A DNA stretch of 64,000 bases, from contig OZ249436.1 of NCBI GenBank assembly GCA_965235115.1, positions 5,520,001 through 5,584,000 on the forward strand, given 5' to 3'. The DNA comes from Laetmonice hystrix (Eukaryota). Below the pieces are notes generated by a model. That model was not told where the DNA came from and searched no databases. It saw only the letters and a program-made list of their open reading frames with translations. Both the position numbers and the translations under genes were made by a program. Shown one piece after another: positions 66 to 42,000 of the stretch (within the stretch, counting starts at the first letter, position 1; every line of letters begins with the position of its first letter).

Positions 66-3000
66 CTATTCATGATCTGAAGAAAGCTGGTGTCAGCCGA
101 GATGGCCTCCGGCGTCCGTGTCCTCAGGGCCTCAAAATGTAGGATGGCATTACAAACAGTCATCACCTCATTAGCCAGGCCATTCTCTGTCTGAAATATA
201 GAGTAACATTTATCACAAGGGATCACTGAGTTATTATGGATAGGTCCATGTAAAAGTAACCTGTAGAACAGCTTCCACTCGGGAATTATAAAGTCAATAC
301 TTATTAAAGTCATGGGAAATTGTGCCGACACCTGGATAATAATACTTAAGATTTTGCTTCAGCTTAACGTTTCTGATTGGCTGGTCTAAGCAGAACAGCC
401 AATCAGAAACGTTAAGCTGAAGATTAAGTAAGATCTTAACTTTGTATGAACTGGGCCCAGAGCGAGACCCACTGATCAGACCCTCTAAGTGGACATTTAC
501 TCATTCTTCTACAGTAGAGAATTAGACCTGAGCGTGTACGAGTACCTGTATGAGGATGTTGCGGGTTGTCAGAGCTTCTTCAAACTGCTCTACCACCTGG
601 TTCAGGGATGGGTTGGCCCCCGCCGCCCACTTCAGTCTCTGGGTGATACTACCTTCTAACGCCAGGTGGCGCTCCTGTATGGCGCCCACTGCAGATTCAT
701 GAGACATCAGTGTCTGCATGTCCTGAAACAAATCATAAGTTTTACTTTTACTCAGTGAACAAGGTCTCTCGGGTTCCTTCATTTGTTATGGGTTTCAACA
801 TTTGTTATGTCATCATGCTAACCTCAGATGATATATGAAAACATCTGAAGTCCAAATAAAACGATTTATTGTGATTTATTTAAAATGATCGATGGTGCAT
901 GGATGAGTAAGTCAGAATAGTGGTAATTCTTGTAAGGATTGATCTGAGTTACCTTCCTGAGCTCTGACATGACTGAGGTACGACCTGGAATGTACATATG
1001 TGCGGCTGTACGGCCAGCCTTGGTGAGAAGGTCTTCATGTAGCCACTGGTAGCGGGACAGAGCCAGCTGACTCCGCTGGACACTTCCCTTCAGTAGGGTG
1101 ATGTTGCTATCCAGACGTCTGGGGACGACAGAAAAAATGTTATTTGTCTGGTCAATTCAATCACTGGGAATAAACCTGCATATTGCATACTACCAAAGTT
1201 AAACCACTTCAGGTTCATAGGCAAGTTTTCCAGCCACCATTATTGTTAGGCTTCAGGTCATAACCGGCTGGAGGCCTAGTGGTGCCATCTTAGCTGTCAT
1301 GGAAATCTGGGTTCGAACGTCGCCATAGAAACCATCAAAACAAAACAGATTTTACAAAACAGTAAAATCATACAGCAGGAAGTTTCTTTTAAAAAATTAA
1401 AAGTTCTCAGCAGCAAATATTCATGCTTCACTGGCAAAATCTAACTTGAATTCAGTAAGTCATTTGTTTGAAAGGTCTTAGGGGCTATGAACCATTATGG
1501 AAACAGAACACAGTTAACATGAACATGAAGTGGTTACAAAATGCACATCGTACTGAAGGAACACTACCTCGAATAGTGAGTGCCTTACCTGGCCAGGTCC
1601 GACTTACGCCAGGCGACGTCGACGCTACCAATGAGGCTGGAGGCTCTGGTCAGATGGGTGTGGCCGAAGGCACCATTCTTCAGGTTTGTATCTACCGCCT
1701 TCTTACACAGGTCCTCGAGTGCTACCTTCGACTCCGCTCCGATATCGTGCAGCTCGATCTCAGCAGTCACGTCCACATGAAGTGCATTCACAAAGAGACA
1801 CAGGACCTGACCGAGCATCTGGCTGGGTAGACCAATCAACTGAAAACAAATAGTAACAAATAACAGAGACTGATTCTGTTCCTCAGATTGACTTTGCTAT
1901 ATGCGGGAATTCGTTATGTGCGTGTTCGTTATAACCGGACTCCACTGTGTGTGTATTGAGTCTAGATAAAAGATGTTGATACCAAATGTACTTACGTGCT
2001 TCCTTACATACTCAGCAACAAAGTGTTTGATAGGTCGTGCTAACTGTTCATCATCATAGAGCACACCACCAGCAAGGCCTAAGGAGGATACAGGTACGTC
2101 TGAGTTTGTGGATAGATAGGAAAGCAACAATTTCTGTTAGGACAAAGGGTTATATGTGCAGACCGAATACGACATCAGTAATTATTGATAGTTTCAAAAT
2201 CAATCTCAAATTGTTTAGACCAATTTTTGCCCAAACGGAAAAAAATATATATATACTAGACAACTGGTCCAGCACATACACACTTTGTACCAGTATAAAG
2301 CATCAAGAGGCAAACCGCTTTAATAAAAACTCATACAATAACATCCCCTTCCTGGTTAAAGTTAAAGTATAAATTAACACCAGAACTGAATGATATAACA
2401 CCATGTAGGTGGTACCCACTCTGGAGGGTGTTAGCTGATGTACAATAACATCCCCTTCCTGGATCCTGACTCAAGTTATAAATTAACACCAGAACTGAAT
2501 GATATAACACCATGTAGGTGGTACCCACTCTGGAGGTTGTTAGCTGATGTACAATAACATCCCCTTCCTGAATCCTGACTCAAGTTAAAGTATAAATTAA
2601 CACCAGACTAAATGATATAACACCATGTAGGTGGTACCCACTCTGGAGGGTGTTAGCTGATGTACAATGACATCCCCTTCCTGGATCCTGACTCAAGTTA
2701 ACGTATAAATTAACACCAGAACTGAATGATATAACACCATGTAAGTGGTACCCACTCTGGAGGGTGTTAGCCGATGTACAATAACATCCCCTTCCTGGAT
2801 CCTGACTCAAGTTAAAGTATAAATTAACACCAGACTGAATGATATAACACCATGTAGGTGGTACCCACTCTGTAGGGTGTTAGCTGATGTACAATAACAT
2901 CCCCTTCCTGGATCCTGACTCAAGTTAAAGTATAAATTAACACCAGACTGAATGATATAACACCATGTAGGTGGTACCCACTCTGGAGGGTGTTAGCCGA

Positions 3001-39000: not shown

Positions 39001-42000
39001 TGCAGTGAGGACCTTTTCTTCATACATGCTCTTGTTTGAGTTGTCAACACATTTGATCACCCTATCCATTGTCTGAAATAAATCAACTACTATTACCAAA
39101 GATATATACAAACAGACATGAGAATGGAAAATTTGAAAACAAAACCATAACCTGTGAAACACTGTTGTAAACCTGGGCTTGCAATGCTCACCTCAACAAG
39201 ATATTCCCAGGTGACCGGAGGGCCCCCAGCCGGGGTGAAGTATTCCCCAAGGCTCTTCATTACAGTGGTAAATACCCTGAGTAGTGCAGCAATCTTGGTG
39301 ACACATTCAGTTGGTGTAGGCATGTCGTCATCACCTGCTGCCTGTCCCGACAGTCCAAGACTCAGGTCCTAGCGCAACATCAATATATCGACATCAATAT
39401 CTCAACATCATCTGCTGCCTGCCCCGACAGACCAAAACTTAGGTCCTGGCACAACATCAATATATCAACATCAATATATCAACATCACCTGCTGCCTGTC
39501 CTGACAGACCAAGACTTAGGTCCTGGCACAACATCAATATATCAACATCACCTGCTGCCTGTCCTGACAGACCAAGACTTAGGTCCTGGCACAACATCAA
39601 TATATCAACATCAATATGTCAACATCACCTGCTGCCTGCCCTGACAGTCCAAGACTTAGGTCCTGGCACAACATCAATATATCAACATCAATATATCGTC
39701 ATCACCTGCTGCCTGTCCCGACAGTCCAAGACTCAGGTCCTGGCACAACATCAATATATCAACATCACCTGCTGCCTGCCCCGACAGACCAAGACTTAGG
39801 TCCTGGCACAACATCAATGTATATCAACATCACCTGCTGCCTGCCCCGACAGACCAAGACTTAGGTCCTGGCACAACATCAATATATCAACATCAATATA
39901 TCAACAATCAACATCACCTGCTGCCTGCCCCGACAGACCAAGACTTAGGTCCTGGCACAACATCAATGTATATCAACATCACCTGCTGCCTGCCCCGACA
40001 GACCAAGACTTAGGTCCTGGCACAACATCAATATATCAACATCACCTGCTGCCTGCCCCGACAGACCAAGACTTAGGTCCTGGCACAACATCAATATATC
40101 AACATCACCTGCTGCCTGTCCCGACAGACCAAGACTTAGGTCCTGGCACAACATCAATATATCAACATCAATATGTCAACATCACCTGCTGCCTGCCCCG
40201 ACAGACCAAGACTTAGGTCCTGGCACAACATCAATATATCAACATCACCTGCTGCCTGCCCCGACAGACCAAGACTTAGGTCCTGGCACAACATCAATAT
40301 ATCAACATCACCTGCTGCCTGCCCCGACAGACCAAGACTTAGGTCCTGGCACAACATCAATATATCAACATCACCTGCTGCCTGTCCTGACAGACCAAGA
40401 CTTAGGTCCTGGCACAACATCAATATATCAACATCACCTGCTGCCTGCCCCGACAGACCAAAACTCAGGTCCTGGCACAACATCAATATATCAACATCAC
40501 CTGCTGCCTGCCCCGACAGACCAAGACTCAGGTCCTGGCACAACATCAATGTATATCAACATCACCTGCTGCTTGCCCTGACAGACCAAGACTTAGGTCC
40601 TGGCACAACATCAATATATCAACATCACCTGCTGCCTGCCCCGACAAACCAAGACTTAGGTCCTGGCACAACATCAATATATCAACATCACCTGCTGCCT
40701 GTCCTGACAGACCAAGACTTAGGTCCTGGCACAACATCAATATATCAACATCAATATATCAACATCACCTGCTGCCTGCCCCGACAGACCAAGACTTAGG
40801 TCCTGGCACAACATCAATATATCAACATCACCTGCTGCCTGTCCTGACAGACCAAGACTTAGGTCCTGGCACAACATCAATCTATCAACAGAGTTTCTGA
40901 CAACGAGAAGTTTCAATGAAGATTTTTAAAATTACTGAATTATCTTGCATCAGGTATTTCCCCCTCCTCCAGTACTCTTCAGAAGAAAAGTACCATCAAC
41001 TAATATACAAACCATCCTAAATTCCTAATGTCAAATCTGAAGTAGGCAAACTGCTCTAAGTATTTTTTCTTGGTGGAGTTTAAGTCAAAGGTTACTGCTC
41101 CAGCTCATGAATTAAAGGCATGTTAGGCTTACGGATCGTGAGCTTCAGCAGTAAATTTCAATTAACCCTTTCCTGGTCACATTGTGTTTGCATTGGGCAT
41201 CCCCCCAGTTCACAAAAAATTAAGACAAACTCACTGATTTGGGGTAGTTATAGTTTATTGGCCCTCACATGGCTTCTACAACACCTAGAGGTCTGAAATT
41301 TTTAGCAGGTGTTCAAAAGGTGTCGGCTAATAAAATGACCTTAAAAACAATGGTATACCTGCCAAATTACAGGTGTGGCATTACAGGTAATCATAAAATT
41401 ACAGGTGTGAAAGTAGTTTTCTTAAGGAAGGATACTAAAATGTAGGAAGTTATGATTTTCTGAGGTAAATAGTTCTTGTCCATGCATGAGGAACTTTTTT
41501 GTTGGGTTTATAATACCTTTTACCTGGTGATTACAGGTAACATGACCGTGTATGTAAACAAAGCATTTCAAGGAATTCTCCCTTTGATGCATCATATAGG
41601 ATGGGAGTATACTTGGTTCTGTAACAAAAAAGAGTGAAGAATTTGGTAAAACCTCTTGAACAGGTGTTCATCTTTAATACATCTTATACATACAAGGTAC
41701 CTGCCAAATATAGGTGTGTTATTACAGGTATTTGGCATGTTATTACAGGTGTCTAATTAACATACCTGAGAGAATTTGTGACTTTTCTACTTTTTTTTTC
41801 ACTTTCTGTTGAAAACACTTTTAGTAAAACACATTAAAGGTCAAACAGGGAAAAAAGCATTTTTACCTGTCATTTAGACACTGACTTTACCTGTATAAAT
41901 TACCAAGGTAAGGTGATTCTGTACTTGTCTCATACAGATTCTGACACAATCTAACTTCATCAAGTTCATGTTTTGAGGGACCCAACTGATGACCCCAACA

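Follow-up and report, generated by a model that had tools for sequence, protein, structure and literature searches.

The SMG1 gene of Laetmonice hystrix carries eight unrelated tandem arrays that each cover a splice site, within a window of 64,000 nucleotides (the whole stretch of DNA analysed here). These arrays belong to the published 'mirage' class of minisatellites, a kind already known and here unusually dense; it is probable that they serve no purpose themselves and that nothing sets SMG1 apart as their host. The mirage explanation draws on local, mutually unrelated units broken at scattered offsets, an intact frame through 59 exons, the stops incurred by decoy use, other allele forms at array edges, a copy in the exon 8 array that matches the true exon past the breakpoint, and arrays at other junctions in the SMG1 genes of two further animals (loci L012 and L059). 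By analogy, the same anatomy in amphioxus and human genes and the exon-centred proximity rule of human splicing point the same way.

Junction-covering arrays in SMG1

The predicted product of the gene carries the Pfam domains PF15785 and PF00454, and spliced alignment gives a reading frame free of stops between 46605 and 59. When aligned with annelid, nemertean, brachiopod and mollusc SMG1, the window's row is gap-free at the exon joins of all eight array sites. A protein tree places the host SMG1 among spiralians, near Owenia and Lineus and not with lancelets; the full-length homologues came from separate searches without the N-terminal-exon query, which found no match among proteins of up to 2000 residues. 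SMG1 introns total 36,951 bases, and 23 of the 58 in the model are at most 250 nt long.

TRF recovered all eight arrays proposed by an earlier sequence-only reading, within a few bases of the ends given there and with donor or acceptor type as named (Table 1). Six cover acceptors and two cover donors, with units of 40-113 bp in 2 to about 23 copies, mostly at 90-97% matches, and their surplus copies amount to 4,688 bases, about 13% of SMG1 intron bases. Eight is the number of junction arrays and not of all arrays, as 14 more in the gene cover no modelled splice site. No unit has a match among the other seven or anywhere else in the window, which bears out the proposal of a repeated local process rather than one repeat family; the sole resemblance is between the A3 74-mer and an adjoining 16-bp array that extends to 27376. 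A candidate common seed motif, TGATGTTG, was rejected: several units contain it, but the gene has just one copy that lies outside an array.

Table 1. Features of the SMG1 locus, in window positions
Feature	Positions	Strand	Unit and copies	Exon bases in unit	Decoys or remark
SMG1 gene	59..46605	minus			59 coding exons modelled, 9,590 nt; 5' exons and the 3' terminus lie outside the model
A1, donor array of exon 54 (3326-3209)	2334..3230	minus	113/114 bp x8	22	7 decoy donors, site sequence identical to true donor
A2, acceptor array of exon 42 (22436-22283)	22394..22756	minus	91 bp x4	43	3 decoys
A3, acceptor array of exon 33 (26094-25930)	26075..26881	minus	74 bp x10.9	20	10 decoys
A4, acceptor array of exon 10	38068..38832	minus	76 bp x10.1	~52	9 decoys
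A5, acceptor array of exon 8 (39368-39192)	39329..40890	minus	63/77 bp, ~23 copies	40	22 decoys
A6, acceptor array of exon 24 (31140-30981)	31136..31423	minus	43 bp x6.7	5	6 decoy copies
A7, acceptor array of exon 21 (33033-32778)	33034..33503	minus	44/36 bp, ~10 copies	0	10 decoys
A8, single duplication of exon 10 donor (38119-37968)	37918..37997	minus	40 bp x2	30
A5 copy	39696..39739	minus			identical to true exon start over 44 bases, beyond usual unit end
Array near an acceptor, not covering it	5903..6057	minus	16 bp		ends 2 bases before acceptor AG at 5899-5900
Array near an acceptor, not covering it	28147..28356	minus	54 bp		ends 14 bases before acceptor AG
Array near an acceptor, not covering it	30566..30781	minus	59 bp		ends 37 bases before acceptor AG

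Breakpoints, copy variation and decoy sites

On the exon side the units break 0-52 bases from the junction and on the intron side 10-91 bases from it, and microhomology at the breakpoints amounts to 0-7 bases. Seven of the eight units span the boundary, containing 5-52 exon bases together with intron, and their breakpoints fall 5-52 bases inside the exon; only that of A7, which contains the acceptor AG and no exon base, falls exactly at the junction. Because the units straddle junctions, and because one whole exon with spread into the intron follows from the geometry of any tandem copy that straddles a junction, the suggestion that arrays start at splice junctions by a junction-anchored duplication is unsupported. 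Tolerance of duplications that spare one whole exon, offered alongside it, does account for array survival: the extra copies are confined to the intron and the exon copy is whole, so that the protein is unchanged. A reading of A1 as exon, with its far-end donor, was rejected, because its 113- and 114-base units would disrupt the frame and the homologues have no space for the added sequence.

The variants that distinguish copies within the arrays are shared and patterned. Among minority variants in the parts derived from exon are amino-acid changes and one deletion, as expected without protein-level selection. The majority differences that separate array from true exon number four, all of them synonymous (P ~0.04 against a two-lineage null, post hoc), whereas over all variants 11 of 22 are synonymous, which fits this null (P=0.41). 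These counts, initially 5/5 and 12/24, leave out two A4 columns (one synonymous majority difference, one non-synonymous) since both originate on the intronic side of that array's breakpoint; the single A8 decoy, with three non-synonymous changes, stands outside the majority count. The A5 copy that follows the true exon beyond the usual unit end is likely a later transfer of exon sequence into the array.

The eight arrays hold 68 decoy copies, 67 of which keep GT or AG, and each decoy used alone leads to a premature stop (over the 68 homologous copies, and moot for one A6 copy that lacks AG). A general weakening of decoys was considered and rejected, since it holds for A6 (GAG in five, GAA in one) and A7 only. 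Some decoys in A2, A3, A4 and A5 score above the true acceptor: the farthest A2 decoy reaches 11.2 against 4.6, and A5 decoys reach 7.2-7.3 against 2.7, a value undercut by only 2 of 51 training acceptors. The A8 decoy donor equals the true donor in strength. A stronger-looking AG 25 bases before exon 24 was also discarded, as it leads to an immediate stop.

Human data support an exon-centred proximity rule of site choice; intron definition instead prefers sites that close short introns. The farthest decoys of A2, A4 and A8 would close introns of 206, 198 and 105 nt and would be preferred under intron definition, so clean splicing is not assured. What speaks for undisturbed splicing is the intact and conserved frame. 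As the sequence-only reading held, the locus bears on how exon definition picks the true site among near-identical decoys. With 67 intact decoys of scored strength and spacing, several of which equal or exceed the true site and lie where intron definition would prefer them, SMG1 offers a test bed for site choice in an intron-rich invertebrate whose introns are short.

Origin and retention of the arrays

Under the mirage explanation, slippage or end-joining that used little microhomology would first have duplicated a segment of 40-113 bp that chanced to straddle a splice site. The geometry keeps whole the copy that adjoins the remaining exon and drops the extra copies into the intron. Unequal exchange and conversion would then lengthen the array and make its copies alike, now and then bringing exon sequence back in. 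If mammalian work is a guide, the spliceosome would pick whichever site lies closest across the exon (first donor or last acceptor), and slips to decoys would yield premature stops and be removed by decay. In a genome prone to minisatellites, a gene whose introns are many and short could in this way collect several arrays, perhaps with a roughly two-fold junction bias.

It is doubtful that the mechanism is strictly lineage-specific, since the class has been published in amphioxus and human genes and is seen in the SMG1 genes of two further animals, at other junctions. One of these animals groups with bivalves, and L012 groups with the window SMG1 (support 0.74). L054 and L016 have no array at the junctions that match A2, A3 and A6. 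The host introns of four arrays are common to overlapping loci (A7 in 2/4, A6 in 4/6, A3 in 7/11, A2 in 4/9); they are therefore not new and predate their arrays, and the suggested link to intron gain is, as regards a new intron, not borne out in these four testable cases.

The null used for enrichment collapsed each array to one unit and re-placed it randomly within the gene; the 22 arrays do not include two poly-T/poly-G runs at 9259-9334. Junction-covering arrays number 8 of 22 against 3.55 expected (P=0.014), or 8 of 14 against 3.07 for units of at least 30 bp (P=0.004). This excess, about 2.3-fold, appears in all five array subsets at margin 0 (P 0.004-0.023), and P rises to 0.07 for all 22 arrays at a 45-base margin; these P values are inflated because the window was picked for the trait. 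L012 has 4 of 10 arrays on junctions against 0.85 expected, about four-fold. By contrast, L054 has 1 of 14 against 1.16 and 25 other SMG1 loci together 1 of 30 against 3.07, so that the loci other than the window and L012 show no excess (2/44 against 4.2). Enrichment is modest in the window, recurs in L012 and does not recur in the other SMG1 loci; a junction excess above chance is suggested but weak. No acceptor bias was upheld (6:2, P=0.29; 9:2 within 45 bases, P=0.07; reversed in L012, with four donors and no acceptors). We lean against a genome-wide excess while granting it a fair hearing; were the two- to four-fold figure to hold genome-wide, it would mean a mutational or retention bias, of which the accessible literature yielded no published quantification.

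That tolerance alone is exceeded in all three comparisons (8/22, 8/14 and 4/10 in L012) counts against the mirage explanation, as do decoys that are not generally weaker and pseudo-donors that are also used in two human genes. The excess in the window and in its relative L012 would follow if junctions were true hot spots in this lineage, with arrays arising or persisting there above chance. Exchange between polymorphic homologues might start in the conserved exon and fail where the intron first shows a mismatch; alternatively, the exon edge might seed the array again and again. The exon-to-array transfer at 39739, the wholly synonymous majority differences and the many allele differences in contigs across 21500-41400 agree with such routes. 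We nevertheless consider hot spots unlikely: the window was chosen for its trait and the wider margin weakens the signal, L054 and the 25 other loci show no excess, one breakpoint of eight is at the junction, polarity differs between the window and L012, and the synonymous test was post hoc while all variants fit the two-lineage null. Quite improbable is the full combination in which minisatellites of this spiralian lineage preferentially arise or survive at junctions, are seeded by the conserved exon edge and provide a steady stock for intron gain, with exon-centred choice holding even across short introns and A5 caught in the act of replacing the original exon start by one of 20 peptide-identical 34-base mini-exons.

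The A5 component, taken as intron gain in progress, would use a decoy acceptor to splice in a 34-base mini-exon; the CAG|GT donor of this mini-exon would then be joined to the same CAG|GT site within exon 8, so that normal mRNA results, as in the Rogers model drawn for mirages. Among the four acceptor arrays with long exon parts only A5 has AGGT in the duplicated part, its CAG|GT site lying 34 bases in; this internal donor scores 7.2-7.6 where scored and is kept in 20 of 22 copies, which encode the same 11 residues, and the decoys outscore the true acceptor. The step is very unlikely all the same, for the acceptor it needs inside exon 8 scores only 2.3, the true exon contains the same internal donor, which must be silent there already, and two copies carry an amino-acid change and one has lost GT, the edge copy being commonly the most divergent in mirages. 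A5 does make the mirage route to intron gain testable through third-position bases.

NMD factors are themselves NMD targets, which favours a scheme in which decoys are selected for unproductive splicing that tunes SMG1, itself an NMD kinase; the premature stops and the 67 retained sites agree. Any intronic read-through would, however, be expected to yield such stops, L012 and L059 carry their arrays at other junctions, L054 and L016 have none at those matching A2, A3 and A6, and stabilised decoy transcripts would encode truncated protein, so this feedback is highly improbable.

Short-read contigs from three runs of one sample, possibly the window's own source, cover 21500-41400 (A1 lies outside) and support the arrays checked. 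All three runs bridge the A8 duplication, and contigs end 30-35 bases inside A2 (91-mer) and A7 (44-mer), as k-mer assembly does at a real repeat. Contig joints indicate other forms at the far edges of A3 (26592-26941, two of three runs) and A4 (38806-38930, one of three), in this one sample and with copy number beyond the contigs' reach. A bin in mid-A5 is without contig cover in two of the three runs, a gap that proves nothing. Although no contig among those listed spans a long array and copy number exceeds what contigs can give, the patterned variants shared among copies, the bridged A8 and the breaks just inside A2 and A7 leave next to no chance that the arrays are assembly artefacts or inflated. 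In practice, junction arrays interrupt short-read assemblies at the borders of exons and can lead gene prediction astray.

Relation to known systems

Mirage minisatellites of amphioxus were reportedly described by Canestro et al. 2002. In mostly non-subscription literature, we found neither a published genome-wide junction enrichment nor mirages outside chordates; the intronic minisatellites of earthworm metallothionein, in the available text, do not span junctions (PMC12783039). Intron gain by tandem duplication is represented by the Rogers AGGT model and a potato RdRp case (PMC4974935, accessible part). A5, which duplicates an intron end and an AGGT-bearing exon start, offers the substrate that Rogers-type models need; in contrast to such gain, the introns hosting A2, A3, A6 and A7 predate their arrays.

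Human VNTRs whose first unit spans a donor occur in F7 intron 7 (37 bp), 6-16, CBS, LMNB2 and PDGF; the source reports that only the first donor is used in F7, LMNB2 and PDGF and that two pseudo-sites are also used in 6-16 and CBS (PMC1557585). As in A1 and A8, identical pseudo-donors follow the true donor, and human VNTR length is polymorphic. The human examples given there are donor-side only, whereas six of the eight SMG1 arrays are at acceptors, with the true site last rather than first, and splicing was measured in the human genes.

A like anatomy is that of amphioxus, where the accessible parts of two papers place mirages in Adh3, the globins BflGb6 and BflGb9, troponin C and PGBD5, with splicing reported unaffected (PMC3087553, PMC3902484) and the edge copy commonly the most divergent (PMC3087553). 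As far as those parts go, the amphioxus unit also spans exon-intron boundaries, both 5' and 3', with a length of 10-160 bp against 40-113 bp in SMG1, and AG or GT is kept in many copies but not all; a most divergent edge copy and a proposed intron-gain route are further likenesses, and the haplotype length difference seen there may have a counterpart in the other forms at the A3 and A4 edges. Correct splicing and somatic instability (Adh3) are reported for amphioxus; an excess over chance is estimated for SMG1, and the amphioxus text available contains no such estimate. The SMG1 arrays differ in their host, a spiralian near Owenia and Lineus rather than a cephalochordate, and in numbering eight within one gene.

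The SMG1 gene and its junction-spanning arrays

The arrays lie in SMG1, which is encoded on the minus strand: one of its exons, used as a query, matches SMG1 proteins, full-length SMG1 of Lingula and Branchiostoma aligns from 46.6 kb to the window's start, and Pfam recognises the SMG1 and kinase domains. Spliced alignment to a ten-homologue profile, with splice-site weights learned from 51 acceptors and 56 donors free of arrays, yielded 59 exons (46605 to 59), the 5' exons and 3' end lying outside this model; an initial model of this span encodes 3,199 residues without a stop. 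The two passes agree on all eight array junctions, at which the exon joins align to homologues and the window's row is ungapped, and differ by 15 bases at one exon start away from the arrays. Possible first coding exons lie at 51833-52342 and 48428-48682 (both minus strand; ATG at 52303), with weak alignment support and, for the former, no Pfam hit. In a 3,047-column tree, the window's SMG1 clusters with Owenia and Lineus (support 0.995), rather than with molluscs or lancelets; it shares 55-56% identity with Owenia and Lineus and 49% with Branchiostoma.

All eight arrays that the sequence-only reading had described in SMG1 were recovered by Tandem Repeats Finder (TRF), with coordinates differing by a few bases (Table). 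Six cover acceptors and two cover donors, their units comprising 0-52 bases of exon and 10-91 bases of intron. The arrays are of local origin and, as that reading held, do not form one repeat family: no unit matches the other seven or any other part of the window, except for the 74-mer of A3, which resembles an adjoining 16-mer array. Its observation that arrays extend into the intron and leave one exon intact also stands as anatomy, without requiring a special mechanism, because tandem copying of a junction-straddling segment keeps the exon-joined copy whole and leaves the rest intronic. The junction-anchored duplication it had proposed is unsupported, since only A7 is broken at the junction and the other breakpoints are dispersed (microhomology of about 0-7 bases, judged by eye). 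Arrays may instead have been born by slippage or end-joining and would then have grown through unequal exchange and conversion. The A5 copy at 39739 is identical to the true exon over 44 bases, beyond the usual unit end, with an array-type intron side, and probably reflects a later exon-to-array transfer.

Repeat arrays and other elements (window coordinates unless a locus is named; L012 and L059 are SMG1 loci on metagenome contigs)
Feature	Position	Strand	Details
A1	2334-3230	-	exon 54 donor; 7 decoys
A2	22394-22756	-	exon 42 acceptor; 3 decoys
A3	26075-26881	-	exon 33 acceptor; 10 decoys
A4	38068-38832	-	exon 10 acceptor; 9 decoys
A5	39329-40890	-	exon 8 acceptor; 22 decoys
A6	31136-31423	-	exon 24 acceptor; 6 decoys
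A7	33034-33503	-	exon 21 acceptor; 10 decoys
A8	37918-37997	-	exon 10 donor, single duplication; 1 decoy
L012 donor mirages	4032-4192; 6851-7191; 7365-7534		84 x2; 17 x21; 34 x5
L059 donor mirage	1-191		clear; 44 x4.4, cut by contig end
Rhodopsin-family GPCR frame	12750-14159	-	intronless, ~460 codons; Pfam 7tm_1
piggyBac-like insertion	41161-42961		TTAA-flanked terminal inverted repeats; partial transposase frame, Pfam DDE_Tnp_1_7
Small MITE-like element	44020-44709		long terminal inverted repeats; adjoins 21-bp duplication 43981-44021
LTR-retrotransposon-like element	~52800-58200		lies upstream of SMG1; its repeated ends hold the same frames, at 53222 and 57871
gag frame of LTR-like element	55105-56829		Pfam Retrotrans_gag
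42-bp C-rich array, large intron	17412-18635		unrelated insert at ~18265-18480
Two 16-bp arrays	11897-11961; 12192-12256		apparent inverted copies, ~230 bases apart
Exon-like frames, neighbouring gene	60931-63711	+	

Among the other elements, the GPCR frame is nested in a 12.8-kb SMG1 intron on the same strand as SMG1, and the piggyBac-like insertion lies in the intron before exon 8, with loose contig ends at its edge. The paired 16-bp arrays are perhaps the ends of a small mobile element. The neighbouring gene's frames include three pieces without a Pfam hit, and TRF finds no array in that region.

Junction excess and the age of the host introns

Comparison with randomised positions, carried out within SMG1 here and at other SMG1 loci, pointed to a modest, roughly two-fold excess of arrays at junctions in the window, echoed in one locus (L012) and absent from the rest. 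For the null, the gene's 22 arrays were each reduced to a single unit, which was then dropped at random positions that are not entirely exonic; 8 of 22 cover a junction against 3.55 expected (P=0.014). The figures are 8/14 against 3.07 for units of at least 30 bp (P=0.004), 8/15 against 3.98 with the 12.8-kb intron left out (P=0.019) and 11/22 against 7.26 with a 45-base margin (P=0.07); these P values are generous because the window was picked for its junction arrays. A 35-bp array at 15953-16206 (minus strand), entered as a miss, carries a strong acceptor-like site in each unit (~10) and is followed at 15921 by a strong donor-like site (11.1) that also scores 8.6 as an acceptor; it is possibly a ninth mirage (the published name for a minisatellite spanning an exon-intron boundary) at an unannotated exon, for example a 5' exon of the nested GPCR.

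The outside check covered 27 of 80 SMG1 loci, modelled on metagenome contigs picked for arrays and several exons, many of them redundant and, as short-read contigs, prone to break at arrays. In L012, donors are covered by 4 of 10 arrays against 0.85 expected (P=0.005), three clear and one a degenerate CAG/CAA run (P=0.04 counting three). A second locus (L054) has 1 of 14 on junctions against 1.16, and the remaining 25 loci have 1 of 30 against 3.07, that one being a simple TG-rich repeat. The L059 array begins before the modelled part and was therefore left out of the count. In the tree, L012 loosely joins the window (0.74), L059 joins the bivalve Mya (0.99) and L003, a further locus, joins Nematostella. 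The junctions that bear arrays in L012 and L059 carry none in the window, and these are therefore independent events.

The host introns of A7 (2/4), A6 (4/6), A3 (7/11) and A2 (4/9) are common to overlapping loci, those of A3 and A2 also being present in cnidarian-like L003; these four arrays therefore invaded old introns. The host introns of A5, A4, A8 and A1 overlap with one or two intron-poor loci only.

Decoy sites, splice-site choice and possible intron gain

GT or AG is intact in 67 of the 68 homologous decoys, that is, extra array copies of a splice site; five A6 copies read GAG, present in 0/51 training acceptors. Every decoy, used alone, leads to a stop within the insert or a frameshift into a stop. 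Decoys are overall no weaker than true sites (A2, 11.2 versus 4.6; A3, up to 8.0 versus 6.0; A5, 7.3 versus 2.7), and the farthest ones would close introns of 206 (A2), 198 (A4) and 105 (A8) bases; of the gene's 58 introns, 23 measure at most 250 bases. In the exon-derived parts, 11 of 22 variants are synonymous (two breakpoint-derived A4 columns dropped), which exceeds a neutral 29% (P=0.03) and is compatible with the 45% expected under a null that lets synonymous drift act on the true exon as well (P=0.41); majority differences are synonymous in 4/4 cases (P ~0.04, post hoc). Human data link intron definition with a preference for the sites closest across the intron, and exon definition with a preference for those closest across the exon (PMC9225289); donor choice in F7 has been shown to proceed by scanning to the first site (PMC1557585). 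That the frame is conserved despite well-placed strong decoys suggests, at the level of sequence, exon-centred choice or mis-splicing tolerated with decay. Outside the arrays, two acceptor-like sites of equal strength, 30551 and 30526 (minus strand; 13.3 and 13.5), lie 25 bases apart before exon 25; a 59-bp unit nearby contains AG|GT.

Under an intron-gain scenario, the internal donor of an A5 decoy would be joined to the corresponding site within exon 8, restoring the normal message. The A5 unit has CAG|GT 34 bases into its exon part, the sole AGGT among four long exon parts checked, and this donor and the same 11 residues are preserved in 20 of 22 copies, but the acceptor required inside exon 8 scores 2.3, and we consider the scenario highly improbable. 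It matches the Rogers model (PMC4974935) in the form drawn for mirages (PMC3087553). Intron gain through these arrays, as earlier envisaged, is unsupported, the four testable host introns being old.

The patterned variants that copies share speak against an assembly artefact; the arrays are real, and the copy numbers given here are those of the assembly. Contigs from three runs of one sample, possibly the window's source, were aligned to 21500-41400 (A1 lies outside). Among the contigs listed, the A8 duplication is bridged in all three runs, in one case by a contig spanning 37194-38095 that differs by 9 letters and 1 gap, and contigs of all three end at 22727 (A2) and 33068 (A7), 30-35 bases into the array, which fits k-mer assembly behaviour at a repeat. 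Other forms occur at far edges (A3 joint 26592-26941, two runs; A4 joint 38806-38930, one run).

Relation to known mirages

It is unlikely that a single account holds in which splice junctions of this spiralian lineage are a favoured birthplace or refuge of minisatellites, seeded by exons, serving as intron-gain stock under exon-centred choice, with A5 caught in the act. A literature search, in main texts and few subscription papers, found no report of mirages in spiralians or of genome-wide enrichment; what is notable here is the array density, the non-chordate host and the modest junction excess. The arrays belong to a known kind. Several human genes are described as having boundary-spanning tandem units at their donors (PMC1557585), and the window's arrays, known from their sequence, share structural features with the amphioxus mirages, described as tandem units across exon-intron boundaries (PMC3087553, PMC3902484).
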